From: a virus
Strand: one strand, 5' to 3'
DNA: 61,953 nt
IMG/VR virus record: IMGVR_UViG_3300045988_087611
Shown: positions 2,813 to 61,905 of the stretch, one piece after another
How positions within the stretch are numbered: position 1 is the first letter of the stretch
Layout of the letters: the number at the start of each line of letters is the position of its first letter
Position numbers and translations under genes: made by a program
Notes under the pieces: model-generated
The model's input: the letters and a program-made list of their open reading frames with translations, nothing else
What the model was told of the DNA's origin: nothing
Databases searched by the model: none

Positions 2813-4800
2813 GGATCAATACCCTTCATATCGAAAACTTCCAGGGCATTCGTGATGCAACTTTCGACCTGGGAGGCCACAGCGCCAGCATTTATGGGGA
2901 CAACGGGACGGGAAAGACCACTGTGTTCAATGCTATTACTTGGCTGCTCTTCGACCGGGCCAGCACCGGCGCCAAGAACTTCACCCCCAAGACCAGAGGG
3001 CCGGGTGGCGACCTTCACCACCTGGAGCACATGGCAGAGGCACAGTTCGTCTTGGACGACGGCCGCCTCGTCCAGCTCCGCAAGGTCTTCCATGAGAACT
3101 ACAAGAAGAAACGCGGCGCGGCCACGGCCGAGTTTGACGGCCACAGCATCGACTTCTACATTGACGGCGTCCCCGTCAAGGAAAAGGAGTACACGGCCAC
3201 CCTTCAGGCGCTCTGCGGCGGGGCCGAGAAGATGAAGATGCTCACCATGCCCAACTACTTCCCCGAGGAAATGGCCTGGGACGCCCGCCGGAAAATCCTC
3301 CTGGAAGTCTGCGGCGATGTTACCGACGGCGATGTGATTGCCGGCCACCCGGAGCTGGAGGAGCTGGACACCTATCTGCTCATGCCCGGCACCACGCGCC
3401 AGTTCTACTCGGTGGAAGAGTACAGGAAGGTTGCCGCGGCCCAGAAGACTGCTATCAATAAACAGCTCCAGGAAATCCCCGGCCGGATCGACGAGGCCCA
3501 GAGGGCCATCCCGGAGGTTGACGCCTCCCCCGAGGAGATCGCCGCGGAGCTGGAGCGCCTGGAGGCCCAGAGCCAGCAGATCACCCAGCGGAAGGCGACC
3601 ATTCTCGCCGGCAACACCGCCACCGCGGAGGCCCAGAAGAGGACGGCCGAGGCCGACGCAAAGGTGGCAGAGGCCAGAGCTGCCTATATCACCAACGCCT
3701 CCACCGTCAACGCCGGCACCAACGCCGCCATTGGTGAGGTGCAGCGCCAAATCGTGGCCGTCCGCAGCCGGCTCAATGCGGCCACGGCCGAAGCGGAGCG
3801 ACAGGAGGCCCTCGCTGAACGCATGGCGGCCCGCCGTAAGGAGCTCCTGGAGGAGTATAGCCGGATTCAGGCCGAATATTGGGATGAAGGGGAGGCCATC
3901 TGCCCTACCTGCCACCAGGCGCTTCCCGCCGATCAGGTGGAGGATATGCGCCAGCAGTTCAACATTCGGAAGAGCAACCGCCTCCAGGCCATCAACGAAA
4001 AGGGCCAGAAGGAGGCCAGCAAGGACATGATCGCGGCAGCCCAGCAGGCCGCCGGGGCCGAGCACCAGAAGGCGGAGGCGGCCGAGGTGGAGCTGAAGGG
4101 GCTGGAACAGCAGCTATCTACCCTCCAGGGAAAGCTCGCCCAGACGCCGCCCTTTGAGACCACCCAGGAATACCACGACCTGATGGAATATGCGGCCAAA
4201 TGCCGGGCCGAAGAGGCAGAGGCAGGCATGGACACCTCTGCCGCCCTGGAGGGCGTGAATAACGAGCTGGAGGCCGTGCAGAGCCGGGCCCGGGAGCTTC
4301 AGCGGAAGCGCAGCTTCTTGGCACAGGCCGAGACCCAGCGGAAGCGGATCGCCGAACTGGAGGCCAAGGAAAAAGACCTGTCCTGCCAGTATGAGGAGCT
4401 GGAGAAGGGCCTCTATCTGTGCGACCTCTTCATCAAGGCCAAGGTGGATATGCTGACCGAGCGAATCAACAGCAAGTTTAAGTCCGTCCGCTTCCGGCTT
4501 TTCCAGGAACAGGTGAACGGGGGCGTCAAGGACGATTGCGAAGTCCTGGTGCCCACAGCGGAAGGCGTCCTGGTGCCCTACACCTTCGCCAACAACGCCG
4601 CCCGCATCAATGCCGGCCTGGAGATCATCGGTGCCCTTTCTGCCCATTGGGGGCTGACGATGCCGGTCTTCATCGACAACGCCGAGAGCATCACCCACAT
4701 TACCTCGCTGCCGTCCCAAGTCGTGCGCCTGGTGGTATCCGAGGCAGACAGCCGGCTCCGCTTGGAGGTAGATGCGGCGGAAACCGTCGGCGCTGCCTAA
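2809..4800 (+). CDS. SMC/SbcC/RecF-like AAA ATPase with a long coiled coil
   Basis: Start chosen at MRINTLHIENFQG (ATGA overlap, RBS AAAGGAG). Walker A GDNGTGKT, Ala/Glu-rich coiled coil, CxxC hook-like ICPTCHQ, Walker B VFIDNAES. Confidence 0.8.
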   Translation: MRINTLHIENFQGIRDATFDLGGHSASIYGDNGTGKTTVFNAITWLLFDRASTGAKNFTPKTRGPGGDLHHLEHMAEAQFVLDDGRLVQLRKVFHENYKKKRGAATAEFDGHSIDFYIDGVPVKEKEYTATLQALCGGAEKMKMLTMPNYFPEEMAWDARRKILLEVCGDVTDGDVIAGHPELEELDTYLLMPGTTRQFYSVEEYRKVAAAQKTAINKQLQEIPGRIDEAQRAIPEVDASPEEIAAELERLEAQSQQITQRKATILAGNTATAEAQKRTAEADAKVAEARAAYITNASTVNAGTNAAIGEVQRQIVAVRSRLNAATAEAERQEALAERMAARRKELLEEYSRIQAEYWDEGEAICPTCHQALPADQVEDMRQQFNIRKSNRLQAINEKGQKEASKDMIAAAQQAAGAEHQKAEAAEVELKGLEQQLSTLQGKLAQTPPFETTQEYHDLMEYAAKCRAEEAEAGMDTSAALEGVNNELEAVQSRARELQRKRSFLAQAETQRKRIAELEAKEKDLSCQYEELEKGLYLCDLFIKAKVDMLTERINSKFKSVRFRLFQEQVNGGVKDDCEVLVPTAEGVLVPYTFANNAARINAGLEIIGALSAHWGLTMPVFIDNAESITHITSLPSQVVRLVVSEADSRLRLEVDAAETVGAA

Positions 4801-4844
4801 TTGAGCACAAGCCCACATTTTCATAATTTGAGGAGGAAATCAGC

Positions 4845-5951
4845 ATGGCAACCAATGAGACCAACACCGGAACCCTTCAGCCCAAGACCGACCAGGCCGT
4901 GGCGCCTCGTGGGAGCAACAGTGAGCGGTTCACCGCCAAGGTGATGAAGGAGTTCGGCAGCTCCGCCGGCGTCCCCCAGGTGACGGACTTCCAGCGGCAG
5001 CTTATCCAGGGTTACTTCATCAGCATTGACCGGGCCCTGAAGGCTGCGGAGGAGGAGCGCCTTCGTAAGAACGCCAACAACAAAGACCACAAGTACGACA
5101 ACGACCTCCCCGTGACCTGGGAGAATGTGAACCTCACCGACCTTGCCCTCGATGTCGTCCACTACGCCCGGATGGGGCTGGATATGATGCAGGACAACCA
5201 CCTTTTCCCCATCCCCTACAAGAATAACAAGGCCCAGAGGTACGATGTCACCCTCATGCCCGGCTATAACGGAATCCGGTATATCGCGGAGAAGTACGCC
5301 CTGGAGCCCCCCCTGGCCGTCACCGTGGAGCTGGTCTATTCTACGGACACCTTCGAGCCTATCAAGAAGGACGCCGCAAACCAGGTGGAGAGCTATCGGT
5401 TCATCATCAACCAGCCCTTCGACCGGGGTGCCGTGGTGGGTGGCTTCGGCTACATCGAGTACACAGACCCCCAGAAGAATGAGCTGGTCATTATGACGCT
5501 GCACGACATTGAGAAGCGCAAGCCGGCCTATGCCTCCCCCAACTTCTGGGGCGGCACCCAGAAGGTCTGGGAGAACGGGAAGCAGGTGGAGAAGCAGTCC
5601 GAGGGCTGGTTCGAGGAAATGTGCATTAAGACCATCAAACGTGAGATTTACAGCGCCAAGCACATTCCCCGCGACCCCAAGAAGATCGACGATGCCTATC
5701 AGTACATGAAAATGCGGGAGGCCCGGTTCGCAGAGATGGAGGCCCAGGCGGAGATCGACGCCAACGCCAACGGGGTGGTCATCGACACCACGCCCGCCTT
5801 CCCCTCGGAGCCGGCGGCGCTTACCGAAGGTGGAGGGGCCCATGCCATCCAGACAGATCCGAGAACCGGGGAGGTTAAAGAGCCTGTTCCCGCTGCCGGA
5901 GCCCCCCAGACCGAGGGGCAGCAGACCACGCTCGGAGGCCCTGATTTCTGA
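4845..5951 (+). CDS. recT: RecT-family single-strand annealing protein
   Basis: RecT-like core PIPYKNNKAQRYDVTLMPGYNGIRYIAEK...GGFGYIEY. It sits between the ATPase and an MBL nuclease. Confidence 0.75.
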   Translation: MATNETNTGTLQPKTDQAVAPRGSNSERFTAKVMKEFGSSAGVPQVTDFQRQLIQGYFISIDRALKAAEEERLRKNANNKDHKYDNDLPVTWENVNLTDLALDVVHYARMGLDMMQDNHLFPIPYKNNKAQRYDVTLMPGYNGIRYIAEKYALEPPLAVTVELVYSTDTFEPIKKDAANQVESYRFIINQPFDRGAVVGGFGYIEYTDPQKNELVIMTLHDIEKRKPAYASPNFWGGTQKVWENGKQVEKQSEGWFEEMCIKTIKREIYSAKHIPRDPKKIDDAYQYMKMREARFAEMEAQAEIDANANGVVIDTTPAFPSEPAALTEGGGAHAIQTDPRTGEVKEPVPAAGAPQTEGQQTTLGGPDF

Positions 5952-16939: not shown

Positions 16940-16960
16940 TGATAGCGTGGAGGATTGGAT

Positions 16961-18670
16961 ATGAGCAACGAAACCACCACACCGGCCCAGCCAAGGGCCA
17001 CCACACCGGACGGCTTTAAGGTCTGGTGCAGCTTCGACGAACTCGTGGAGCTGGACAGCTTGAAGCCAAATCCCAGAAATCCCAATAAGCACCCGGTGGC
17101 CCAGCTTGAGCTCCTGGCGAATATTATCAAGAAGGGCGGCTGGCGGGAGAAGATCACCGTCAGCCGCCGCAGCGGTTTTATCGTCAAGGGACATGCCAGG
17201 CGGGAGGCCGGGAAGATGGCCGGAGGGCAGTATGCTCCCGTCGAATGGCAGGACTACGCCACCGAGGCCGACGAGATGGCCGACCTGATTGCCGATAACC
17301 GGATCGCCGAGCTGGCGGTTCTGGATGAAGAGGCCATCACCGAGCTGCTGGCCGAGCTGGAGGCCAACACCGACGGCATAGACCCGGAAATGAGCGGCTT
17401 CACCGCCGAGCAGATCAGGGAAATGGTGGAGAAGGCGCAGAAGGGGGCAGACGAGGCAGAGCAGCAGGCAGCCCGCCTCACCCTTCAGCAGAAGTTCCTG
17501 ATCCCGCCATTCACCGTCCTGGACGCCCGTGGCGGCTTCTGGTCGGAGCGGAAGAAGGCATGGAAGGCCCTGGGCATCCGCTCCGAGATGGGCCGGGGCG
17601 CCGACGACTGCAAGACCGAGGGCGGCCTTACCTTCGCCCGGAGCTCCCAGCCGCCGGCAGTCTACCAGGCCAAGAATGACTACGAGGCCAAGGTGGGCAA
17701 GAAGATCTCCTGGGAGGAGTTTGCCAACCTGTTCCCCGAGGTCATGGCCCAGGGCGGCACCTCCATTTTTGACCCGGTGCTCTGTGAGGTAGCCTATCGG
17801 TGGTTCTGCCCACAGGGCGGCTCCATCATTGACCCCTTCGCCGGCGGGAGCGTCCGGGGCATCGTGGCAGCCCTTACCGGCCGGCGCTATACCGGCGTTG
17901 ATTTATCCGGCCGGCAAATCGAGGCTAACACCCAAAATTGGGAGGAAATCTCTCACGAAAGCGTCTTAGAGGACAGTGAGTGCCCCGTAACTCCTCCCAA
18001 CTGGATCAACGGCGACAGCAGCCACATTGAAGAGCTGGCCCCGGGAGATTATGACCTATTCTTTACCTGTCCCCCCTATGCAGACCTGGAGGTTTATAGC
18101 GACAAGCCGGAAGACCTCTCCAACAAGGATTATCCGGAGTTCCTGGAGCTCTACCGGGGCATTATCCGAAAGACGGCGGCCATGCTGAAGCCAAACCGCT
18201 TCGCCTGCATCGTTGTGGGGGATGTGCGGGACAGCCGGGGCTTCTACCACAACTTCGTGAGTGACACCATCACGGCCTTCCGGGACGCCGGCATGGACTT
18301 CTACAATGAAGCCATTCTGATTATGCCTTTTGGCAGCCTGCCCATCCGGGCCGGCAAGCAGTTTGCCAGTGGCCGGAAGCTGGGCAAGGCCCACCAGAAT
18401 GTCCTTGTGTTCTGCAACGGAGACCCGGCCCAAAGTGGAGCCTTCGACCTGGAGACCCCGGAGGGGTACGCCGGGGACATTGGCCGCTATCTGGCCGCCG
18501 GCGCCGGCAAGCTGGGTCAGGAACACCAAAAGGTGCTGGTCTTCTCCAAAGGCGATCCCGCCCAGGCATCGGCCGATATTGGAGTGCCTGAGGACACGGA
18601 GGCCCTGGACAGCACCGACAACGCCCGGTTGCTGAAGGAGCTCCTGGGCAGCGACTATCCAGACGAATAA
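16961..18670 (+). CDS. ParB-like nuclease domain fused to a DNA methyltransferase
   Basis: N-terminus LKPNPRNPNKHP...GHARREA (ParB N-domain). AdoMet motif IIDPFAGGSVRG. Catalytic FTCPPY. ATG at 16961 after GGAGGA. Confidence 0.8.
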   Translation: MSNETTTPAQPRATTPDGFKVWCSFDELVELDSLKPNPRNPNKHPVAQLELLANIIKKGGWREKITVSRRSGFIVKGHARREAGKMAGGQYAPVEWQDYATEADEMADLIADNRIAELAVLDEEAITELLAELEANTDGIDPEMSGFTAEQIREMVEKAQKGADEAEQQAARLTLQQKFLIPPFTVLDARGGFWSERKKAWKALGIRSEMGRGADDCKTEGGLTFARSSQPPAVYQAKNDYEAKVGKKISWEEFANLFPEVMAQGGTSIFDPVLCEVAYRWFCPQGGSIIDPFAGGSVRGIVAALTGRRYTGVDLSGRQIEANTQNWEEISHESVLEDSECPVTPPNWINGDSSHIEELAPGDYDLFFTCPPYADLEVYSDKPEDLSNKDYPEFLELYRGIIRKTAAMLKPNRFACIVVGDVRDSRGFYHNFVSDTITAFRDAGMDFYNEAILIMPFGSLPIRAGKQFASGRKLGKAHQNVLVFCNGDPAQSGAFDLETPEGYAGDIGRYLAAGAGKLGQEHQKVLVFSKGDPAQASADIGVPEDTEALDSTDNARLLKELLGSDYPDE

Positions 18671-18732: not shown

Positions 18733-19362
18733 TTGAGTAGGCCGAAGAAGGCCGCCCCGGCCTATAACGGGGAGATGTGGGAGCAGATGATCGGAGAGAG
18801 CACCCAGCAGTACGAGCGGTTCTGCCTTTATCGGGATATGCGTTATAAGCCCCCTGACAAGGAGAAAGACCCTCCGAAGCTCGACCTCACCAGCCGGCGA
18901 AGCATCCGGGGCGTGGCGGAGCGCCTGGGCATGGCCCGCCAGACGCTGGAGAGCTGGAGCTCTGCCTTCCACTGGCGGGAGCGGTGCGAAGCATACGACG
19001 CCTATATCCTCGGGCGGCTGCGTGAGAAGAACGAAGCCGACATCCTGAAGATGCGGGAAACCCATGCTTCCTTGGCAAATCAGATGTTGAAGAAGGCGAC
19101 CAGGCGCCTTCTGACCCTCAAAGACGAGGAGATCACCGCCGCCGACATCGTGCGCCTGGTCGATGTAGGTGTGAAAATAGAGCGGTTGAGCCGTGGAGAG
19201 AGTACCGAGCGCCAGGAGATCACCGGGGAGGCCAAAGTCCACCACAGCGGCACCCTGGACGTGACAGCGGCAGGCGGTCTCGACCTCTCCGGGCTTTCCG
19301 ACGAGGAGCTGGGCCAGCTTGAGCAGCTATTGGGCAAGCTACATCCAGAGCCCAGCGTTTGA
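18733..19362 (+). CDS. terS: Terminase small subunit
   Basis: TTG start after AGGAAGGAGGAG. HTH-like SIRGVAERLGMARQTLESWSSAFHW. It lies directly upstream of terL. Confidence 0.65.
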   Translation: MSRPKKAAPAYNGEMWEQMIGESTQQYERFCLYRDMRYKPPDKEKDPPKLDLTSRRSIRGVAERLGMARQTLESWSSAFHWRERCEAYDAYILGRLREKNEADILKMRETHASLANQMLKKATRRLLTLKDEEITAADIVRLVDVGVKIERLSRGESTERQEITGEAKVHHSGTLDVTAAGGLDLSGLSDEELGQLEQLLGKLHPEPSV

Positions 19363-20818
19363 CCCGGAGGCGCTGCAAGCCGCCATCCGTAAAGAGAAGG
19401 CGGAGCGCAGCTTATCCGATTTCATCCGCCAGGCGTGGCCGGTGATCGAACCAGGCACAGAGTACATCGAGAACTGGCACACTGACCTTATCAGCGAATA
19501 CCTCCAGGCTGTGAACCTGGGACAGATCCACCGCCTGATCGTCAACATCCCGCCCCGGCACATGAAGTCCATCCACGTCACCGTCTGCTATCCTGTGTGG
19601 ACGTGGCTGCGGGCGCCGGCCAAGCGGTTCATCAAGGTTTCTTACAGCGACGCCCTCTCCCGGAAGCACAATATCCTTTCCCGTGATATTATCCGCTCCC
19701 CCTGGTATCAAGGGAACTGGAGCGATAGATTTAGCCTGAAGGACGATGTGAACCGGCAGAACGAGTTCCGCAACGACCACCAGGGCATGATGATGTCTAC
19801 CTCCGTCGGCGGCTCTCTGACCGGCGAAGGCGGCGACGTTATCATCATCGACGACCCGCAGAACCCCCTCATGGCGAACAGCGAAACGGAGCGACAGAAC
19901 AGCATCAACTTCTTTAAGAACACGCTCCAGACCCGTCTAAATGACCCCAAGAACGGCGCCATTATTATCATCATGCAGCGCCTTCACGAAAGCGATCTGA
20001 CCGGCTACGTCCTGTCGGAAGACCTGGGGTACACCCACCTGTGCCTCCCGGCGGAAGCCGAGGAGCGCAGCACCATCATCTATCCCATCAGCAAGAAGAA
20101 GGTCGTCCGGGAGCCGGGCGACCTTCTGAACCCCGCCCGCTTCGATAAGGAAGTCCTGGACAGCCTGAAGCGGAGCATGGGCTCGGCGCAGTACGCCGGC
20201 CAGTTCCAGCAGACTCCGGCTCCGGCGGAGGGTATCATATTCAAGCGTGAATGGATGAACAACACCTTCACGGCAAAGAGCCTCCCACACCAGAGCATAA
20301 TAATCCAATCCTGGGATATGGCCTTCACCAAAAGCGAAGGCAGCGCCAAGGTGGCCGGCTTCGTCCTCTCCCGGGCCGGGAGCAATATCTATATCCGTGA
20401 CCTGGAGAACGACAAAATGACCTTCACGGAGAGCGTTGCGGCCGTCCGCCGCCTCTCTGGCAAGTGGCCGAAGGCCCGCGCCAAGGTGGTGGAGAACAAG
20501 GCCAATGGGCCTGCCATCGTTGACCTGCTGAAGAAGGAAATCCCCGGCATGGTGGAGTTCAACCCCAAGGGCAGCAAGGAGGAGCGGGCCATATCCGTCA
20601 CTCCCTATTTTGAGGCCGGAAACATCTGGTTCCCAGACCCCAAGGATGCCCCCTGGGTGAACGACCTGATCCGTGACCTTCTGATTTTCCCCAAGGGCAC
20701 CTTCAAGGACACCACAGACGCGCTGGTGCAGGGTATCCTCTACCTGATGGATAAGCCCACCACCTCCGCCCCGCCCAAGGACATCACCACCACCCGGAAG
20801 AGCTACTGGATGAAATAA
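19319..20818 (+). CDS. terL: Terminase large subunit
   Basis: 499-aa ORF. ATPase region LIVNIPPRHMKS, Walker B-like VIIIDDP, C-terminal nuclease-type region. Start (TTG 19319) uncertain. Confidence 0.8.
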   Translation: MSSYWASYIQSPAFDPEALQAAIRKEKAERSLSDFIRQAWPVIEPGTEYIENWHTDLISEYLQAVNLGQIHRLIVNIPPRHMKSIHVTVCYPVWTWLRAPAKRFIKVSYSDALSRKHNILSRDIIRSPWYQGNWSDRFSLKDDVNRQNEFRNDHQGMMMSTSVGGSLTGEGGDVIIIDDPQNPLMANSETERQNSINFFKNTLQTRLNDPKNGAIIIIMQRLHESDLTGYVLSEDLGYTHLCLPAEAEERSTIIYPISKKKVVREPGDLLNPARFDKEVLDSLKRSMGSAQYAGQFQQTPAPAEGIIFKREWMNNTFTAKSLPHQSIIIQSWDMAFTKSEGSAKVAGFVLSRAGSNIYIRDLENDKMTFTESVAAVRRLSGKWPKARAKVVENKANGPAIVDLLKKEIPGMVEFNPKGSKEERAISVTPYFEAGNIWFPDPKDAPWVNDLIRDLLIFPKGTFKDTTDALVQGILYLMDKPTTSAPPKDITTTRKSYWMK

Positions 20819-21025
20819 TCGCCCAAAATAGACACCAGAATCTTGTAAAATTATGTATAATTTTATTGGGCCCTGTGGGGAGGTGACGAGATTTCGGTGG
20901 AACCCCCAAAACGGCAGCGCCTCCACCGTCAATGCGGCGGCCGTGGAATAGAGATGGCTGGCTGGTGAAATATGCCCAATCAGCGGCCGGCCCTCCCTGG
21001 ACTTACGATAGGAGGAACCGCACCA

Positions 21026-21187
21026 ATGAAAAACGACAGATACATCATTTCTATTGCTGCCGACGAAGACCCTGCCATCTTCTCCAAGAAGGCCAAAGAT
21101 GGCGCCACCGTGACCATGATCACCGCCCGGACGTTTGAGGAGGCCACCGCCCTGTATGAGCAGGCGGCCGCCGAGAACGCGGAGTAA
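21026..21187 (+). CDS. 53-aa hypothetical protein (paralog of 21588..21749)
   Basis: ATG at 21026 after TAGGAGGAA. ISIAADEDP...DGATVTMITARTFEEA parallels the second copy. Confidence 0.45.
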   Translation: MKNDRYIISIAADEDPAIFSKKAKDGATVTMITARTFEEATALYEQAAAENAE

Positions 21188-21194
21188 AAGCGAA

Positions 21195-21220
21195 GGGGGC
21201 CCCGAATTGGGCCCCCGTTT
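21195..21220 (+). terminator. Terminator-like hairpin
   Basis: GGGGGCCC-N6-GGGCCCCC followed by GTTT. Confidence 0.5.
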
Positions 21221-21237
21221 CTCCTTGAAATTCGATG

Positions 21238-21266
21238 TTGACTTGTAGCGGGCTACATGGTAGAAT
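21238..21266 (+). promoter_or_regulatory. Promoter of the RHH/antirepressor module
   Basis: TTGACT (21238-43), 17-bp spacer, TAGAAT (21261-66). Confidence 0.7.
21244..21257. promoter_or_regulatory. Palindromic operator 1 TGTAGCGGGCTACA (fills the promoter spacer)
   Basis: Arms TGTAGC/GCTACA are perfect inverted repeats. Confidence 0.65.
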
Positions 21267-21280
21267 TGTAGCAGGCTACA
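21267..21280. promoter_or_regulatory. Palindromic operator 2 TGTAGCAGGCTACA (immediately after the -10)
   Basis: Same arms as operator 1, 23 bp centre to centre. Confidence 0.65.
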
Positions 21281-21288
21281 AGGAGGCG

Positions 21289-21468
21289 ATGCACTTGGCC
21301 GACAAGAGCAGAGCCGAGTATTTCCGCGAAAGACGGAAGACCATGAAGTCCTTTAATGTGATGCTCAAACGGGAAAAGGTCGAGGCCCTGGAGGCCAAAC
21401 TTAAAGCCGAAGGCAGAACAAAGGCAGAGTGGTTGGACGAAAAGGTGGATGAAGAGCTCGGCAAATAG
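21289..21468 (+). CDS. Ribbon-helix-helix repressor (Arc/Mnt/CopG-like)
   Basis: ATG at 21289 after AGGAGG. KSFNVMLKREKVEALEAKLKAEGRTKAEWLDEKV is a strand-helix-helix. It sits just downstream of a promoter flanked by twin palindromes. Confidence 0.6.
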   Translation: MHLADKSRAEYFRERRKTMKSFNVMLKREKVEALEAKLKAEGRTKAEWLDEKVDEELGK

Positions 21469-21587
21469 GAAGGACGCCCACCGTCCCTGACAAAGACCTG
21501 GTGAGCGCCCTCCATAAACAACAACCCCGAAGGATTGATAAATCCATTCTATCAGACCTCCGGGGGAATTTCAAGGAGGAAAAATAG

Positions 21588-21749
21588 ATGGAGGCACGGT
21601 ATTATATTACCATTTCCCCCGACGAGGAGCTCCACACCTACACCCGCCAGGCCGAGGACGGCGCGACCGTGGTTCTTATCACGGCGCCCACCTTTGAGGC
21701 CGCCGCCGGCGCCTATCTGGCGTTTACCGGAGGGAGGGTGCTGGCATGA
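21588..21749 (+). CDS. 53-aa hypothetical protein (paralog of 21026..21187)
   Basis: Not in the ORF track. RBS AAGGAGGA. ITISPDEEL...DGATVVLITAPTFEAA. Confidence 0.45.
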   Translation: MEARYYITISPDEELHTYTRQAEDGATVVLITAPTFEAAAGAYLAFTGGRVLA

Positions 21750-21973
21750 CCGCGAGAGAAACTATCGAGGCCGAGCTGAAGCAGATGGTCTTTGACCTTC
21801 TCCATGAGCAGGATATGGACGATCTGAGGGACGGCGAGAAGAAAGCCCTGCCCCATATCTCCGCCGCCGAGCAGGCCCACATCCTGGACAGCACCCAGTC
21901 CACCGCCTGGAGGAATGAGATCGAAAAGGCGGCCACGTTCAGCCGCCTTCTGAAAGGAGATGCAGAGCCGTGA
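21746..21973 (+). CDS. Hypothetical acidic protein
   Basis: 75-aa ORF, ATGA-coupled. Confidence 0.4.
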   Translation: MTARETIEAELKQMVFDLLHEQDMDDLRDGEKKALPHISAAEQAHILDSTQSTAWRNEIEKAATFSRLLKGDAEP

Positions 21974-22728
21974 ATGGGCTCCAGGTATTCAGCTATAATG
22001 ACCACAGTGTGAGAACTGTTAAGCAGGATGGCCAGCCCTGGTGGGTGCTGGCCGATGTGTGCGATGTGCTGGAGCTGAAAAACCCCGCAAGAGTGGCCGC
22101 ACGTTTGGACGAGGACGAAAAGAATACCCTAACTTTTGTGAAGGGTATTCCTGGCCCCGGAAATCCGACTATGACCATCATCAACGAACCGGGGCTATAT
22201 TCGGTGATCCTGCGGAGCAACAAGCCGGAGGCGAAAGCCTTTAAGCGGTGGATTACCCATGAAGTTCTCCCCACCATTCGCGCCACGGGGGCCTATGGAG
22301 CCCCGCAGGCAGCCCCCGCAATAACTGATGCCTTGGAGCGCATGACGGGTGTTGTGGAGGCGCTGGCGAGCCGCATCGAGGCGCTGGAACATCAGGCGCA
22401 GGAAGTCCCCCGGGCAGAATTGATTGCCCCCCCTGACCTCAGCATTCCGCGAACTACCCGACGCCACTGGATGAGGAAATTCAACGAGAAGCTGGAAACG
22501 CTGGAATATAACTTCAATCTCTCAAAGCCGGCCATTCTTCGCCGCCTCTACGATATGGTAGAAAAGAAGTTTGACACCGTGCTGGACGAAGAGCGGTTCC
22601 GATATATTGAGAAAACCGGCCAGGAAGAGTGCTCTGTACTCGAAATTATCTATCGAAATGAGCAGTATAGAGCCTATTTCCAGCACATTATCGACCAAAA
22701 GCTGGGGCCGGAATATTGGGATTGGTGA
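21970..22728 (+). CDS. Bro-N domain antirepressor-like protein
   Basis: LQVFSYNDHSVRTVKQDGQPWWVLADVCDVLEL...INEPGLYSVILRSNKPEAKAFKRWITHEVLPTIR is a canonical BRO N-terminal domain. Confidence 0.8.
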   Translation: MNGLQVFSYNDHSVRTVKQDGQPWWVLADVCDVLELKNPARVAARLDEDEKNTLTFVKGIPGPGNPTMTIINEPGLYSVILRSNKPEAKAFKRWITHEVLPTIRATGAYGAPQAAPAITDALERMTGVVEALASRIEALEHQAQEVPRAELIAPPDLSIPRTTRRHWMRKFNEKLETLEYNFNLSKPAILRRLYDMVEKKFDTVLDEERFRYIEKTGQEECSVLEIIYRNEQYRAYFQHIIDQKLGPEYWDW

Positions 22729-22732
22729 ATGC

Positions 22733-22767
22733 GAAAGGGCTGGGGGCCATAAGCTCCCAGCCCTTTC
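22733..22767 (+). terminator. Terminator after the antirepressor gene
   Basis: GAAAGGGCTGGG-loop-CCCAGCCCTTTC. Confidence 0.6.
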
Positions 22768-22782
22768 TGTCCGGAAACGCGC

Positions 22783-22822
22783 CTGTAATTCTGGTGTAAT
22801 TGGAGTGTAACAAGGGTGTAAT
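22783..22822 (+). repeat. Four (G)TGTAA(T/C) direct repeats in exact 11-bp phase
   Basis: Copies start at 22783, 22794, 22805 and 22816. They are followed by the inverted pair TGCGTTAC (22822-29) / GTAACGCA (22840-47). Confidence 0.8.
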
Positions 22823-23051
22823 GCGTTACCTTTTCGCACGTAACGCACATGAAATCTGGTGTAGCATTTCTGTGTAATTTGGTAATCGCTCGACGAAATT
22901 TCATTCGGATTTTTTGAAGGAGATTATTTGTTCACACAGGCAGAATGATATGGGTATTTGAAGACAGAGTTGTGTGCAAAAAAGTGTGGAAATGTTGATA
23001 AAATCCCGCAATTCTTTTCTGAAATAGAAACTTTTATGAAAGGGATTAGTG

Positions 23052-23089
23052 TGTAACGCACTTGTAACGCACCAGTAATCCGAAGTTAC
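23052..23089 (+). repeat. TGTAACGCAC x2 plus GTAAT and GTTAC, 11-bp phase
   Basis: Copies at 23052-61 and 23063-72, GTAAT at 23075, inverted GTTAC at 23085. Confidence 0.8.
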
Positions 23090-23093
23090 GCGC

Positions 23094-23165
23094 CTACCTA
23101 ACCGTACCTAACCTAACCTAACCTAACCTACCATACCATACCTGACCATACCTAACCTACCAGAC
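23094..23165 (+). repeat. Degenerate pentanucleotide tract (CCTAA/CCATA)n, ~14 units
   Basis: cctac ctaac cgtac ctaac ctaac ctaac ctaac ctacc atacc atacc tgacc atacc taacc tacc. Confidence 0.85.
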
Positions 23166-23265
23166 CCAGGGGAAGTTCCTCTTTGCCCACTGAAAAGCCG
23201 TGGGCGGTAGCTGGGTGTGGCCTGGGCATTTTCGATACCGTGAACAACAGAACACCGCCAGTCCG

Positions 23266-23292
23266 ACGGCCGCCGCTTGGTGGCCGTTTTCT
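23266..23292 (+). terminator. Terminator-like hairpin with a U-tract 13 nt before the portal RBS
   Basis: ACGGCC-N10-GGCCGT followed by TTTTCTT. Confidence 0.45.
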
Positions 23293-23318
23293 TATACGCT
23301 GGAGAAAGGAGGAAAAGC

Positions 23319-24728
23319 GTGGCTACTTTGCGTGAAATCGGCCGGATAGGACAAAACCGCTGGGGCGGTGTCTTCCGGGAAGAGTTCTTGACGGAGCTCC
23401 AGGGCCGCCGGGGAGTCCAGGCGTTCCGAGAGATGTCGGAGAATGACGACATCGTGGGCGCTATCCTATTCGCCATTGAGATGCTGATTCGGCAGGCCGT
23501 GTGGGAAGTGCAGCCAGCCGGGGACACGGCCAAGGACAAGGAGGCCGCCGAGTTTGTGGAGAGCTGCATGGATGATATGGCCGACACCTGGACGGACACC
23601 ATCGCGGAGATCCTGTCCTTCCTGACCTATGGCTGGAGCGCCCACGAAATCGTCTACAAGCGCCGGGTCGGCCGGAGCAACGACCCCCGGCTCCAGAGCA
23701 AGTATGGGGACGGCCTAATTGGCTGGCAGAAGCTGCCCATCCGGGCCCAGGAAACCCTCTATGAGTGGCGCTATGACGCCCGGGACAACCTCATGGGCCT
23801 GGTGCAGATGCCACCCCCGGACTATGGCCTGATTGAGATACCTGTGGAAAAGCTGCTGCTCTTCCGCACGAAGAGCCGGAAGGGCAACCCGGAGGGGCGC
23901 AGCATCCTCCGCAACGCCTACCGGGATTGGTACTTCAAGCGGCGCATCCAGGAAATAGAGGGCATCGGCATTGAGCGCGACCTCGCCGGCCTCCCGGTGA
24001 TCACCGCGCCGGAGGGGTTGGACATCTGGGACACAGAAGACCCGGACATGGTGACGGCCAGAGCCCAGGCGGAGCGGATTGTGCAGAACGTCCGGCGGGA
24101 CAGCTTGGAGGGGCTGGTAAAGCCCTCAGGCTGGACATTGGAGCTGCTGTCCACCGGCGGCCGCCGGCAGTTTGACACCAACAGCATCATCGACCGCTAC
24201 GACAGCCGCATTGCTATGACGGTGCTGGCGGACTTCGTGCTGCTGGGGCACCAGAACGTGGGCAGTTTTGCCCTGTCCAGCGACAAGACCAAGCTCTTCG
24301 GCACGGCTATCGGGGCTTACCTGGATATTATCTGTGAGGTCTTCAACAACCAGGCAATCCCCCGGCTCATTGACCTGAACGGCGAGCACTTCCGGGGTAT
24401 CACCGATTATCCGGAAATGACCCACGGCGACGTGGAGAGCCCCAACCTCGCCACCCTGGGCACCTTCCTGCGGGAAGTCACCGGCGCCGGCATCCTAATC
24501 CCGGATGAAGGCGTGGAGGACTATGTACGCCAGGCCGCCAACCTCCCGGAGCGCATGGAAGACTACGGCACACAGCTCAACCAGCAGAACCGGGAGCGGC
24601 AACAGCCGCCCAAAGGCCAATCTATGAAGCCAGCCGCCGGCCAGGAGGAAGACCAGGATGGAGAACTCCCGGACGATGAAAAAGACGCCGTAGAGGCCGC
24701 CAAACGGCGCCTCGGGAGGTATGATTGA
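23319..24728 (+). CDS. Portal protein (Mu gp29/DUF935-like)
   Basis: GTG at 23319 after AAAGGAGG. About 470 aa, located upstream of the MuF gene. Acidic C-terminal tail. Confidence 0.75.
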   Translation: MATLREIGRIGQNRWGGVFREEFLTELQGRRGVQAFREMSENDDIVGAILFAIEMLIRQAVWEVQPAGDTAKDKEAAEFVESCMDDMADTWTDTIAEILSFLTYGWSAHEIVYKRRVGRSNDPRLQSKYGDGLIGWQKLPIRAQETLYEWRYDARDNLMGLVQMPPPDYGLIEIPVEKLLLFRTKSRKGNPEGRSILRNAYRDWYFKRRIQEIEGIGIERDLAGLPVITAPEGLDIWDTEDPDMVTARAQAERIVQNVRRDSLEGLVKPSGWTLELLSTGGRRQFDTNSIIDRYDSRIAMTVLADFVLLGHQNVGSFALSSDKTKLFGTAIGAYLDIICEVFNNQAIPRLIDLNGEHFRGITDYPEMTHGDVESPNLATLGTFLREVTGAGILIPDEGVEDYVRQAANLPERMEDYGTQLNQQNRERQQPPKGQSMKPAAGQEEDQDGELPDDEKDAVEAAKRRLGRYD

Positions 24729-59837: not shown

Positions 59838-61001
59838 TTATGGAACCGGGCCTTTTTTGGCCTCTTCCAGCTCCAGCGCCTCGGCAATCGAGAGCGGTGC
59901 CGGAGCCGCGGCATCCACCCTTCTGGCAGGGGCATGGCGCTCCAAGTCTTGCACCAGTGACTCCATCTTATCCGGGTAGAGGTGGGTATAGGTCGCCATC
60001 GCCACTTCCACTGTGTCCCCCAGGCGCTCGGCAACGGCCACAATGGAATATCCAAGCTCCACCAGCAGGGCGGCGTGGCTGTGACGCAGATCATGGATGC
60101 GGATGCGCTGCACCCCTGCGGCCGCCGCGGCACGGTCGAGCTCCCGATTGAGGGTGCCGTGACCAAAGTAGAATATGCGCTCGTCTGGCCCAATTTCATA
60201 GAGGGCGCCGATGTACTGCTGCACCTCGTCATATAGGAAAGCCGGCATGGCGAGATCGCGGACGCTGTTGTCAGTTTTAGTGGGGCCCGGATCGTCCTCC
60301 CCGTTTCTGCGGTGGTGCGTCTTGACGATGTGCGCCACCTTCGACGGCCGGATGTCTGCCGGCGTCAATGCCAGGCACTCGCCCACACGGAGGCCGAGCC
60401 AATACATGAGCTGGAAAGCCACCCGGAAAGCAGGCTTTTTCACCTCCGCCAGAGCGGCCTCAAATTCCGCCAGCGTCCAGAATTTCATGCGGCCCGCCTT
60501 CTTCTTCCCCATGAAGCCAGCCGGCAAGCATGGGTTCTGCCGCAGGCCATAGTACATGACGGCATAGTTCATAATGGCAGAAAGCCGGCTGTTGATGGAA
60601 CGGAGGTATGTGGGGGCATAGGGCTTTCCGGTCTTCGGGTTTGTCTTGGAGAGCAATTCATTCTGCCATTTTCGGATTGTAACGGCGTCGATTTTATCGA
60701 CCGGGAGCTGGCCGAAATACGGAAGCAGCCACCTGTTGATGATGTTGTCCTGGGCTCCCCGGGTCGTGTCCCGGACGCGGTGATCCGCGTCCTCCTGGTA
60801 TAGCTCCACCAGAGATGCAAAGGACATGTCGCAGCTCTGACTATTTTTTAGCAGGAACTGCCGCTCATATTCCTGCGCTTCCCGGCGCAGCGCAAAGCCC
60901 TCCTTCTTTTTCAGACGTCGGGCCCCTGTCCAGTCAGTATAGCGGAAGGCTGCATACCATTTGATTTTCCCGTCCTTTGTTTTATAGGATTTTACAGACA
61001 T
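59838..61001 (-). CDS. int: Tyrosine integrase
   Basis: C-terminal catalytic region RIHDLRHSHAALL...ATYTHLY. N-terminal arm-binding-like SVKSYKTKDGKIKWYAAFRY. ATG at 61001 inside ORF 59838..61055. Confidence 0.9.
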   Translation of the reverse strand: MSVKSYKTKDGKIKWYAAFRYTDWTGARRLKKKEGFALRREAQEYERQFLLKNSQSCDMSFASLVELYQEDADHRVRDTTRGAQDNIINRWLLPYFGQLPVDKIDAVTIRKWQNELLSKTNPKTGKPYAPTYLRSINSRLSAIMNYAVMYYGLRQNPCLPAGFMGKKKAGRMKFWTLAEFEAALAEVKKPAFRVAFQLMYWLGLRVGECLALTPADIRPSKVAHIVKTHHRRNGEDDPGPTKTDNSVRDLAMPAFLYDEVQQYIGALYEIGPDERIFYFGHGTLNRELDRAAAAAGVQRIRIHDLRHSHAALLVELGYSIVAVAERLGDTVEVAMATYTHLYPDKMESLVQDLERHAPARRVDAAAPAPLSIAEALELEEAKKGPVP

Positions 61002-61051
61002 ACTGCGCCCCCAAAACAGAGGCCCTGGCCCGACACGGCCAGGGCCTTCTT

Positions 61052-61516
61052 TCACTCTTCATCGGCCTTCTCGTCACCCGCAGCGCCTTCCACTTCACCT
61101 TTCCCGCGTTTCCGGTTGGCATCAGTGAGCTGGAGCATGTCTATATATTCAAGCAGCCGCCGGCGGGATTTCGTGGAAAGACTGATATACTGGCGAGCGA
61201 TAGACAGCGCCTCTGGGTGGGTAGAGCAAATTACCAGGGCCTTCCGATCCTCTTCAGATAGGTTCCCGGCACTGCCCAGCAGTGCGGCGATATGGGGTGC
61301 GGAATAGGTTGTCCCCCTTTTCCTTTCATCGGACAGGCCGAGGATATAGTCAACAGATACGTCAAAAATGAGAGCAAGCATCCGAAGCGTACCTTCAGAC
61401 AAGCCGCTCTTTTCATTTTCGTACTTGGAAATGACAGCCGGCTTTACTCCGAGCCGGGATGCGAGTTCGCGTTGAGACATATCGGCCTCTTCTCGCAGCG
61501 CACGAATACGGTTCAT
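61052..61516 (-). CDS. cI-like XRE-family repressor
   Basis: HTH MSQRELASRLGVKPAVISKYENEK. Divergent from the cro-like gene. Confidence 0.75.
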   Translation of the reverse strand: MNRIRALREEADMSQRELASRLGVKPAVISKYENEKSGLSEGTLRMLALIFDVSVDYILGLSDERKRGTTYSAPHIAALLGSAGNLSEEDRKALVICSTHPEALSIARQYISLSTKSRRRLLEYIDMLQLTDANRKRGKGEVEGAAGDEKADEE

Positions 61517-61537: not shown

Positions 61538-61566
61538 ATTTTACTATTTCCACCACGGAAATACAA
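61538..61566 (-). promoter_or_regulatory. Leftward (repressor) promoter overlapping operator O1
   Basis: On the minus strand: TTGTAT, 17-bp spacer, TAAAAT. Confidence 0.5.
61546..61562. promoter_or_regulatory. Operator O1 (ATTTCC-N5-GGAAAT)
   Basis: Perfect 6-bp inverted arms. Confidence 0.6.
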
Positions 61567-61573
61567 GGACTAT

Positions 61574-61590
61574 TTTTCCACGGCGGAAAA
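61574..61590. promoter_or_regulatory. Operator O2 (TTTTCC-N5-GGAAAA)
   Basis: Perfect 6-bp inverted arms, 28 bp from O1. GGAAA half-sites also occur at ~61620 and ~61657. Confidence 0.6.
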
Positions 61591-61604: not shown

Positions 61605-61633
61605 TTGACTTTCTAAAATGGAAACATTAGAAT
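61605..61633 (+). promoter_or_regulatory. Rightward early promoter (cro-like operon)
   Basis: TTGACT, 17-bp spacer, TAGAAT. Confidence 0.65.
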
Positions 61634-61680
61634 ATTGATTGTAAAAAGTTCCTCAACGGAAAACAAGGGAGGTGAACACC

Positions 61681-61905
61681 ATGAAAAACAGACTGCAAGA
61701 GCTCCGCATAAAGCACGGGGAAACCCAGCAGCAGCTCGCGGCAATCATGGGCATCAAAACCGCCGGCTATTGCAAAAAGGAGCTGGGCTACAACTCCGTC
61801 ACACTGGCAGAGGCGTATGCGGTGGCTACCCACTGGGGGCTCTCCATTGAGGAAGTTTTTTTTGCTGACAGTGTTTCCGAAAAAGAAAGTATTTCGGCCT
61901 GTTGA
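61681..61905 (+). CDS. Cro-like XRE HTH protein
   Basis: ATG at 61681, 8 nt after AAGGGAGG. ETQQQLAAIMGIKTAGYCKKELG. Its 3' end lies in the terminal overlap. Confidence 0.7.
   Translation: MKNRLQELRIKHGETQQQLAAIMGIKTAGYCKKELGYNSVTLAEAYAVATHWGLSIEEVFFADSVSEKESISAC

Follow-up and report, generated by a model that had tools for sequence, protein, structure and literature searches.

The window analysed here, all 61,953 nucleotides of the temperate, siphophage-like genome IMGVR_UViG_3300045988_087611, carries between its terL and portal genes a cassette that starts with a small, probable ribbon-helix-helix (RHH) gene and continues with two small open reading frames (orfB53 and orfC75) and a gene for a Bro-N protein. 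Our results suggest, with a probability of roughly 0.6, that this cassette is an "ant moron" whose cargo is placed under a two-layer, dosage-sensing shut-off, exerted by the RHH protein at the promoter and by a short antisense RNA predicted from the spacer behind the RHH gene. The reading is supported by the arrangement and conservation of these elements across related phages, by covariation in a leader hairpin, and by the modular exchange of the regulatory part between sister phages. Coordinates are collected in Table 1.

That the cassette is an insertion, as a sequence-only reading of this DNA had proposed, is evident from the neighborhood. The terL-portal gap measures 2458 nt in the window, compared with a median of 143 nt among 30 IMG/VR relatives with a terL at least 65% identical (at most 300 nt in 20 of the 30); besides the cassette it holds orfA53 and an AT-rich region of about 500 nt, the order being orfA53, a G+C-rich bidirectional terminator, the cassette, the hairpin at 22733-22767, and the AT-rich repeat region. 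Among the 30 relatives, cargo of kilobase size fills the gap in the closest clade only, which comprises L046 and L047 (88% terL identity) and L154 to L157 (identified through their Bro-N homologs), and each member, including L046, L047, L154, and L156, has different cargo there. None of the 45 viral contigs with an RHH homolog shares the terL or portal of the window phage, and a DNA search of the GenBank phage collection found nothing closely related to the cassette or the phage; its matches were confined to Bro-N core motifs in "antirepressors" of mycobacteriophage and Pseudomonas phage. The same layout is nevertheless found in many phages of gut Clostridia, usually among structural genes (after portal/MuF, before the tape measure gene, or before terS), and in most loci a Bro-N or AntA-type gene lies downstream from the RHH gene. 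Since the cassette keeps different neighbors, mostly among structural genes, as described for the "ant moron" of P22 (PMC2629481), we conclude that it is an inserted, separately promoted, and probably horizontally mobile unit of the moron type.

The predicted promoter of the cassette matches the consensus at 10 of 12 positions and outscores every other sigma-70-like site in the surrounding 6.5 kb (18.5-25 kb), in agreement with the earlier proposal of a promoter of its own. Two candidate operators, O1 within the promoter spacer and O2 abutting the -10 box, lie 23 bp apart, center to center; beyond these two, no match to TGTAGCNNGCTACA occurs in the 62-kb window with two mismatches allowed. They had been described as perfect palindromes: the repeats are there and are unique in the window, but each consists of 6-nt inverted arms about a 2-nt center that is not palindromic. 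The terminators proposed on both sides are likewise borne out in part. The upstream hairpin is intrinsic-terminator-like in both directions and, judged from its sequence, insulates the cassette from terL and orfA53, whereas the 15-bp inverted repeat at the downstream end has no clean T-run or U-run and was not called by the terminator scan.

Relatives provide the strongest argument on the RHH protein and its operators. About 40 loci with RHH homologs (48 to 86% identity) keep the upstream order TTGACx, inverted repeat, TAnAAT, inverted repeat, AGGAGG. The sequence of the repeat changes from lineage to lineage along with the predicted β-strand motif of the protein, a GCGC core accompanying QFSVLS, GTTAGCTAC accompanying QLVFMV, and GTATC accompanying FNVLLP. 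Because this promoter and two-operator layout is kept and the operator tracks the strand motif, autoregulation of the RHH-type first gene by way of these repeats is very probable, as had been suggested. Its product is probably an RHH-fold protein, as judged from sequence comparison and modeling, although its length probably differs from the 59 amino acids (aa) originally given: a start at TTG 21295 (57 aa) is favored over ATG 21289 by the 8-nt spacing from AGGAGG and by the use of this start in homologs such as that of L126. The protein belongs to phrog_3896 (E = 3.5e-25), a family annotated as of unknown function. Pfam and NCBIfam matches of the window's RHH family are to plasmid replication regulators only (RepB-RCR_reg and RepA/CopB, the latter a weak RepA-regulator match for the window protein); RepB-RCR_reg was matched by 25 of 43 family members and RHH_1 (CopG) by 3 of 43. 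In an AlphaFold2 model (pLDDT 76), a conserved, basic helix at the N terminus is followed by an unassigned stretch (residues 19 to 27), at the position expected for the ribbon strand, and by two further helices. CopG-family RHH proteins stand at the position of the RHH protein in the sister phages L156 and L047 and also in L147. No match to the Arc family was found in a Pfam scan.

The best-conserved stretch of the cassette is the 119-nt spacer between the RHH stop codon and orfB53. It contains a predicted antisense promoter and two hairpins, H1, which abuts the RHH stop codon, and H2, which adjoins the ribosome-binding site of orfB53. The spacer is 84% identical to that of L154 over its whole length and its H2 half is 98.6% identical to that of L156, compared with about 75% identity to the sister phages in the genes flanking the spacer; the operator-plus-RHH segment and orfB53 have no similarity to the sister phages L154 and L156. 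The antisense promoter, at the equivalent place on the minus strand, recurs together with H1 and H2 in 40 of 46 distinct spacers downstream from RHH genes. It always lies 69 to 94 nt past the RHH stop codon and has a sigma-A-type form (TTGnnn, 17 to 18 nt, TGnTAnAAT), the extended -10 in the window being TGATAGAAT at 21554..21546. In a comparison of 31 nonredundant lineages, which had been filtered beforehand at score 9, the minus strand scored at least 9.5 in 31 of 31, versus 1 of 31 for the plus strand and 5% for shuffled sequences.

H1 is the predicted intrinsic terminator of this antisense transcript. Two mismatches of the plus-strand hairpin (A-C and C-A) become G-U pairs on the minus strand, and the minus-strand fold of 21541..21462 has an energy of -35.3 kcal/mol (z = -5.0). 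A simple argument from strand stability proved to be mostly compositional and was corrected with a shuffle control; across the 31 lineages, the minus-strand advantage of H1 was -6.65 kcal/mol, compared with -4.17 kcal/mol expected from composition (p = 2.6e-4), and the G-U share of H1 pairs was 20% versus 2.5%. In most lineages, an A-run past the RHH stop codon yields a U-tail on the minus strand only. The sequence thus predicts a cis-antisense RNA of about 77 nt in the window and of 65 to 91 nt across the 31 lineages. It appears to be previously undescribed: an Rfam scan of 20700-23400 on both strands (E ≤ 1) returned a chance snoRNA match only and no family for the spacer. A search of the whole window found no additional antisense targets.

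H2 is a leader hairpin of the sense mRNA; its loop contains the antisense -10 box, and its right arm contains an anti-Shine-Dalgarno sequence, CCUCC (21557-21561). MAFFT with RNAalifold on the whole spacer recovered only partial hairpins. The arms had been misaligned through length differences, and we therefore used an ungapped alignment anchored only on the antisense -10 box and not fitted to structure, along with alignment-free tests and a covariance model. In the ungapped alignment, 15 of 17 H2 pairs show compensatory change, and 75.5% of cells are paired, a value reached by 0 of 500 shuffles; with slid partners, at most 49% are paired. The covariance model built from this alignment found 29 elements, all in the orientation of the RHH gene, and 82% of cells are paired in the set of 28 sequences that it aligned. 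Cognate arms pair at -17.8 kcal/mol and noncognate arms at -10.1 kcal/mol, while arm identity between lineages is only 33%. The right arm, often with CCUCC, also covaries with the downstream Shine-Dalgarno region (-13.5 versus -10.0 kcal/mol; permutation p < 1e-4). A scan of IMG/VR for exact matches to the H2 core of the window type found a single contig, which is the contig of L047.

Modular exchange is seen when the sister phages are compared. L154, L156, and L047 carry unrelated pairs in place of the whole operator-plus-RHH segment but keep the antisense/leader element and, downstream, the orfC75 and Bro-N genes (Bro-N is truncated in L047). L154 (4170-4540) has operators CTTTGTGGGTAC/GTACCCACAAAG and a 58-aa RHH-like protein; L156 (4190-4540) has two copies of operator GTAGCAAC and a CopG-family RHH protein exceeding the Pfam cut-off; and L047 (5700-6040) has operators TTGCTTACCGAAAG/CTTTCGGTAAGCAA and a borderline RHH_1 protein. 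Units can also be stacked. In L137 (a metagenome-assembled Bacillota genome, 3170-4310) and L147 (Muriventricola aceti, 3945-5040), three tandem units, each composed of promoter/operator, RHH gene, H1, and H2 and of three different RHH/operator types per array, precede a single cargo gene; the first two end in four-codon remnants of a cargo start (MLTI* and MAGR*), which indicates that recombination occurred at the conserved spacer element. Going by these sequences, the swaps and stacking resemble a diversification of immunity specificity. In L136 (5413-5700), the leader and antisense promoter occur a second time, directly before the Bro-N+KilAC gene and after an inserted 58-aa ORF, and second copies are also found in L002 and L152; the element can thus repeat before successive cargo genes.

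These elements may be combined in the following scheme. When the genome enters a cell free of the regulator, host sigma-A RNA polymerase would fire the cassette promoter and produce a single RHH-orfB53-orfC75-BroN mRNA. The RHH protein would build up, bind both inverted repeats, in the promoter spacer and at the start site, and shut off its own promoter. Meanwhile, the constitutive promoter on the opposite strand of the spacer would produce the antisense RNA, ending at the RHH stop codon, which would pair with the left arm of H2 and free the right arm to occlude the ribosome-binding site; alternatively, the duplex of antisense RNA and leader might be cleaved. The ATGA and GTGA overlaps suggest that orfB53, orfC75, and the Bro-N gene are probably translationally coupled, and a block of orfB53 translation would extend to the other two but leave RHH synthesis unaffected. 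The antisense layer would thereby allow the repressor to stay on while the cotranscribed cargo is off. By analogy, the net outcome would be that cargo is expressed as a pulse at entry and falls silent thereafter, and a lysogen would silence, in trans, the cassette of an incoming phage that shares its RHH type.

The class of the cargo (Bro-N or AntA type) is conserved across related cassettes by sequence, and the earlier account of two small ORFs and a Bro-N gene following the RHH gene proved accurate. The Bro-N domain was matched by Pfam PF02498 over residues 14 to 101 (E = 6e-25, 88.1 bits, cut-off 25.6). In an AlphaFold2 model of the 252-aa protein (pLDDT 77), this N-terminal domain is followed by a long helix and by a C-terminal helical domain that is modeled with confidence; the last gave no informative match in Pfam, PDB sequence profiles, or Foldseek, and ANT/KilAC and P22_AR domains were not found by Pfam scan. 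Fold matches in BFVD were to Bro-N proteins (E down to 6e-12). Distant relatives (P0143 and P0149) have Bro-N fused to P22_AR_N and ANT; among related cassettes, L133 to L136 encode Bro-N+ANT(KilAC), L001 and L002 an AntA-like protein (judged by eye from a sequence motif), and others plain Bro-N. The gene in first position behind the leader is less constant: only 12 relatives of orfB53 were found, none of them named, with a homolog at the equivalent position in L047 and an unrelated 78-aa ORF in its place in L154 and L156. By comparison, orfC75 is conserved alongside the Bro-N gene in L154, L156, and L047; it matched no family in Pfam, PHROG, PADLOC, or NCBIfam. No Rep family was matched by orfB53, orfC75, or the Bro-N protein (Pfam, PHROG, and NCBIfam), and PADLOC and NCBIfam gave nothing for the five small proteins besides the RepA-regulator match of the RHH protein.

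The sequence-only reading had likened the cassette to the Arc/Mnt-Ant region of P22. In P22, mnt, arc, sar, and ant form a moron in the late operon, ant is controlled by arc and by the sar RNA, and this immI region is highly variable between otherwise syntenic P22-like phages (PMC2629481). The likeness lies in an independently promoted unit within a late or structural block, a small first gene of probable RHH type as the predicted repressor of its own promoter, a predicted antisense RNA from the spacer between repressor and effector, an effector annotated as antirepressor, and variability between relatives; with a sar-like RNA predicted in the spacer, the parallel to the arc-ant logic is closer than first noted. 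It does not extend to Mnt or to homology. The cassette lacks Mnt and a divergent second promoter (no credible minus-strand ORF or second RHH gene for an Mnt-like repressor was found in 20800-23300) and has no sequence match to Arc, Mnt, or the P22 Ant domains (P22_AR_N, P22_AR_C, and ANT). P22 sar overlaps the ribosome-binding site, whereas the predicted antisense RNA of the cassette lies upstream from it, and the cassette is found in Gram-positive Clostridia hosts, with a Bro-N effector and with RHH units that are swapped and stacked. The immI analogy is apt for the working logic, but the cassette is no immI homolog.

Plasmid copy control offers a second parallel. In pMV158, the copG-repB promoter is under repression by the RHH protein CopG, RNAII, a 48-nt transcript of the spacer, keeps repB from being translated, and relief of repression leads to a burst at establishment (PMC4485353, PMC5717011). 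As in pMV158 and in CopB-CopA of R1, the cassette has an RHH-type first gene, a predicted autorepressor with its operator on the promoter, and, in the intergenic region, a predicted short countertranscript (5' tail and single terminator hairpin) acting on translation of the next gene; as in pMV158, a burst on entry into a naive cell is proposed. Unlike the pMV158 circuit, the cassette controls genes other than replication initiators and stands in a phage structural region, and its predicted RNA is longer (65 to 91 versus 48 nt) and lies beside a covarying leader hairpin.

Several observations weigh against the two-layer scheme. The antisense RNA and both promoters are predictions from sequence. 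Composition accounts for most of the strand bias of H1 (-4.2 of -6.65 kcal/mol), the U-tail of the antisense terminator in the window is poor (UAUUUG), H2 itself has no strand preference (20 of 40), and the whole sense leader is not unusually stable (z = -1.4); the anti-Shine-Dalgarno/Shine-Dalgarno helix of the window is weak, with 5 bp and rank 12 of the 22 lineages compared. For the RHH protein, the match to RepB-RCR_reg (E = 0.003) is under the curated cut-off, Foldseek of the model against PDB gave no matches, and a PDB sequence profile search returned coiled-coil noise only. As to the effector, the Bro-N fold weakly resembles DNA-binding domains, nothing ties the protein to the CI-like repressor, and AriS of Listeria, the one member from Firmicutes studied in the class annotated as antirepressors, is not a CI antirepressor, which shows that names of this kind may mislead (PMC9043618). 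It is from annotation and from the name "anti-repressor" of its PHROG families that the Bro-N protein has its presumed role, and its job is the least certain step of the scheme; candidates are inactivation of the CI-like repressor, an AriS-like DNA-binding regulator, and anti-defense together with the small acidic ORFs. A Pfam scan found no peptidase domain in the CI-like repressor, which is compatible with, and no proof of, antirepressor-driven induction.

A reading that keeps the regulatory shell and makes the Bro-N protein a DNA-binding temporal regulator of genes of the phage or the host, comparable to the N-terminal domain of AriS, so that the cassette tunes the lytic program and leaves the CI-like repressor active, has perhaps one chance in three or a little less. 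The weak Foldseek matches of the Bro-N model (E = 0.035 to 0.17) involve DNA-binding domains without exception (APSES Mbp1/PCG2, Ski/Dachshund, and the DdrC N-domain). AriS-like proteins have Bro-N, AntA/B, or pRha as interchangeable N-terminal domains, and the activities found, a lowering of phage gene transcription by the tested AntA/B domain and an inhibition of SOS by KilAC, differ from CI antirepression (PMC9043618). The cassette cargo shares the Bro-N N-terminal domain with regulators of this kind (AriS and P1 Ant1/2), but the window protein lacks KilAC, as it does the ANT and P22_AR domains, and for its C-terminal helical domain neither a family nor a solved relative was found. A CI-like repressor without a self-cleavage domain would, however, lead one to expect some antirepressor in the genome, and the swapping and stacking of RHH specificities resembles diversification of the immunity type, which fits effects in trans between phages. 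Less probable, though still worth considering, is an anti-defense operon of the acr-aca type, in which the RHH protein takes the role of Aca by damping a very strong early promoter and the variable small acidic ORFs inhibit host defense. The strong early promoter with inverted repeats, the operon-encoded autorepressor, and the position as an accessory island among structural genes would suit such an operon. Burst at entry followed by shut-off is the logic of Aca regulation. The first ORF past the leader is highly variable (orfB53, 78-aa, 59-aa, or 75- to 97-aa ORFs), and neither orfB53 nor orfC75, both small and acidic, matched a family. Small AP2-like genes, a common component of acr loci (PMC10732046), come after the RHH gene in L005 and L006 and are also present in the gap of L046. 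Against this, the regulator of acr operons is usually the last gene and a helix-turn-helix (HTH) protein, while that of the cassette comes first, is of RHH type, and is joined by a predicted antisense layer; the recurrent partner is a Bro-N or AntA gene, no known Acr or anti-defense protein was matched in general scans, made without a dedicated library, and PADLOC, which covers defense systems, found nothing.

The spacer might also act without any functional antisense RNA, as a sense-strand element (an mRNA stabilizer, a processing site, or a translational enhancer) or as a recombination linker for the exchange of RHH units, the minus-strand promoter match being a by-product of an A/T-rich loop. 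The covariation of H2 requires the sense RNA only, the MLTI* and MAGR* remnants attest to recombination at the junction of spacer and start codon, and the strand bias of H1 is mostly compositional. We consider this unlikely, about on a par with or slightly below the anti-defense operon, for the TTGnnn box is kept at 17 to 18 nt from TGnTAnAAT in 40 of 46 spacers while the arm sequence between them varies freely, the U-tail is on the minus strand only, and the excess in minus-strand stability persists after correction (p = 2.6e-4). A toxin-antitoxin or abortive-infection module, with the RHH protein as antitoxin or regulator, was rejected and seems very improbable to us: autoregulated operons that start with an RHH gene are typical of type II toxin-antitoxin loci, and a RelB/YafQ pair adjoins the cassette in L126, but none of the downstream ORFs matches a toxin family (Pfam, PHROG, and NCBIfam), PADLOC gave no match, and the gene after the RHH gene is not conserved.

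If the two-layer shut-off by RHH protein and antisense RNA holds, it would constitute a widespread and so far undescribed regulatory module of temperate gut Clostridia phages, with hosts that include Oscillospiraceae and Lachnospiraceae; the "unknown function" family phrog_3896 would gain a function, a new family of cis-antisense RNA and leader, absent from Rfam, would be defined, and a circuit known from P22 immI and plasmid copy control would prove to serve again in Gram-positive phages, there as a gate on accessory cargo. The Clostridioides difficile phage CDMH1 carries the module and is a cultured model in which the predictions are directly testable. In this myophage (L159; NC_024144, 12.1-13.4 kb), gp19, annotated as hypothetical, is the RHH homolog and gp20 the Bro-N protein; the unit is located between an XkdN-like tail gene (tail chaperone) and the tape measure gene and has an equivalent promoter with operators of the TATCGCGATA type, an antisense TTGAAA-17-TATACT promoter, and the same terminator hairpin. 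Because RHH genes and operators are swapped and stacked, they offer a testable handle on interference between coresident and superinfecting gut prophages, a matter of relevance for prophage induction and for interventions against C. difficile that use phages. More speculatively, and with considerable doubt on our part, the segment from promoter/operator through RHH gene to antisense RNA and leader could be a mobile, exchangeable "immunity cartridge" under diversifying selection, with the RNA element as its recombination joint, and the stacked cartridges of a prophage could silence in trans the entry-pulse cargo of superinfecting phages of several types, be it antirepressor or anti-defense genes; if true, this would amount to inter-phage warfare by repressor arrays that center on a new family of antisense RNAs.

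Table 1. Features of the cassette and its surroundings in the window (cassette, 21188-22767, between terL and portal)
Feature	Position	Strand	Description
terS	18733-19362		
terL	19319-20818		
orfA53	21026-21187	+	Small ORF right after terL; context, outside the regulated unit
Upstream terminator-like hairpin	21195-21216	both	8 G-C pairs, 6-nt loop, T-rich tails on both strands
Cassette promoter (Pant-like), predicted	21238-21266	+	TTGACT 21238-21243, 17 nt, TAGAAT 21261-21266; extended -10 TG
Operator O1 (predicted)	21244-21257		Promoter spacer; TGTAGC-GG-GCTACA = TGTAGCGGGCTACA
Operator O2 (predicted)	21267-21280		Abuts -10, spans predicted transcription start; TGTAGC-AG-GCTACA = TGTAGCAGGCTACA
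RHH-like ORF	21295-21468	+	57 aa from TTG 21295; 59 aa if ATG 21289
Predicted cis-antisense RNA	21463-21539	minus	~77 nt; UUCG-capped 5' hairpin or tail, then terminator H1
H1 hairpin	21468-21513	minus	Arms 21468-21482 / 21500-21513; predicted antisense intrinsic terminator
H2 leader hairpin of sense mRNA	21524-21566	+	Arms 21524-21540 / 21550-21566
Antisense promoter (predicted)	21546-21574	minus	TTGAAA 21574..21569, 17 nt, TAGAAT 21551..21546; TGA extended -10; 10/12 matches
orfB53	21588-21749	+	First ORF under predicted leader/antisense control; Shine-Dalgarno GGAGG 21575-21579
orfC75	21746-21973	+	Small, acidic; start overlaps orfB53 stop (ATGA)
Bro-N protein, 252 aa	21970-22728	+	GTGA overlap onto orfC75
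Closing inverted repeat	22733-22767	+	15 bp, 93% complementary, terminator-like
Portal, Mu-type	23277-24728		MuF-like gene next
Integrase	59838-61055	minus	Right end of genome
HTH repressor (CI-like), 154 aa	61052-61516	minus	Overlaps integrase start by 4 nt
cro-like HTH gene	61681-61905		Faces the 154-aa repressor; behind TTGACT-17-TAGAAT (61606-61634)

Some further observations concern the neighborhood of the cassette. orfA53 and orfB53 are paralogs (50% identity over 40 aa, E = 2e-13) with a common DGATV-LITA-TFEEA motif; the family is tiny and unnamed, orfA53 has no Pfam or PHROG match, and homologs of orfA53 come after terL in L046, L154, and L156. In L156, a 217-aa proline-rich membrane protein with its own promoter is an additional feature. 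In L126 and L129 to L132, which represent a Flavonifractor-associated phage with the cassette just before terS/terL, a RelB/YafQ-ParE toxin-antitoxin pair is encoded directly upstream from the RHH-Bro-N cassette (about 4349-4886 in L129).

Between cassette and portal lies an AT-rich noncoding stretch (22770-23276; 39 to 45% GC compared with about 60%). It contains TGTAAT/TGTAAC repeats phased at 11 bp (22784-22822), three copies of GTAACGCAC (22840, 23053, and 23064), and about 15 CCTAA/CCATA pentamers in tandem (23093-23170); 23039-23290 is kept at 73 to 81% in L154 and L156, and L047 has a comparable array of five TTACTGGTAAC copies upstream from its own cassette. A late promoter with activator sites, bent DNA, or a packaging-related role is possible for this region. 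At the lysogeny switch, two TTTCCAC-N2/3-CGGAAA repeats (61547-61562 and 61575-61590) are candidate operators. Just upstream from terS, 16955-18670 encodes a 571-aa protein whose C-terminal half contains an N6/N4 DNA methylase domain and which is kept at 76% in L046.

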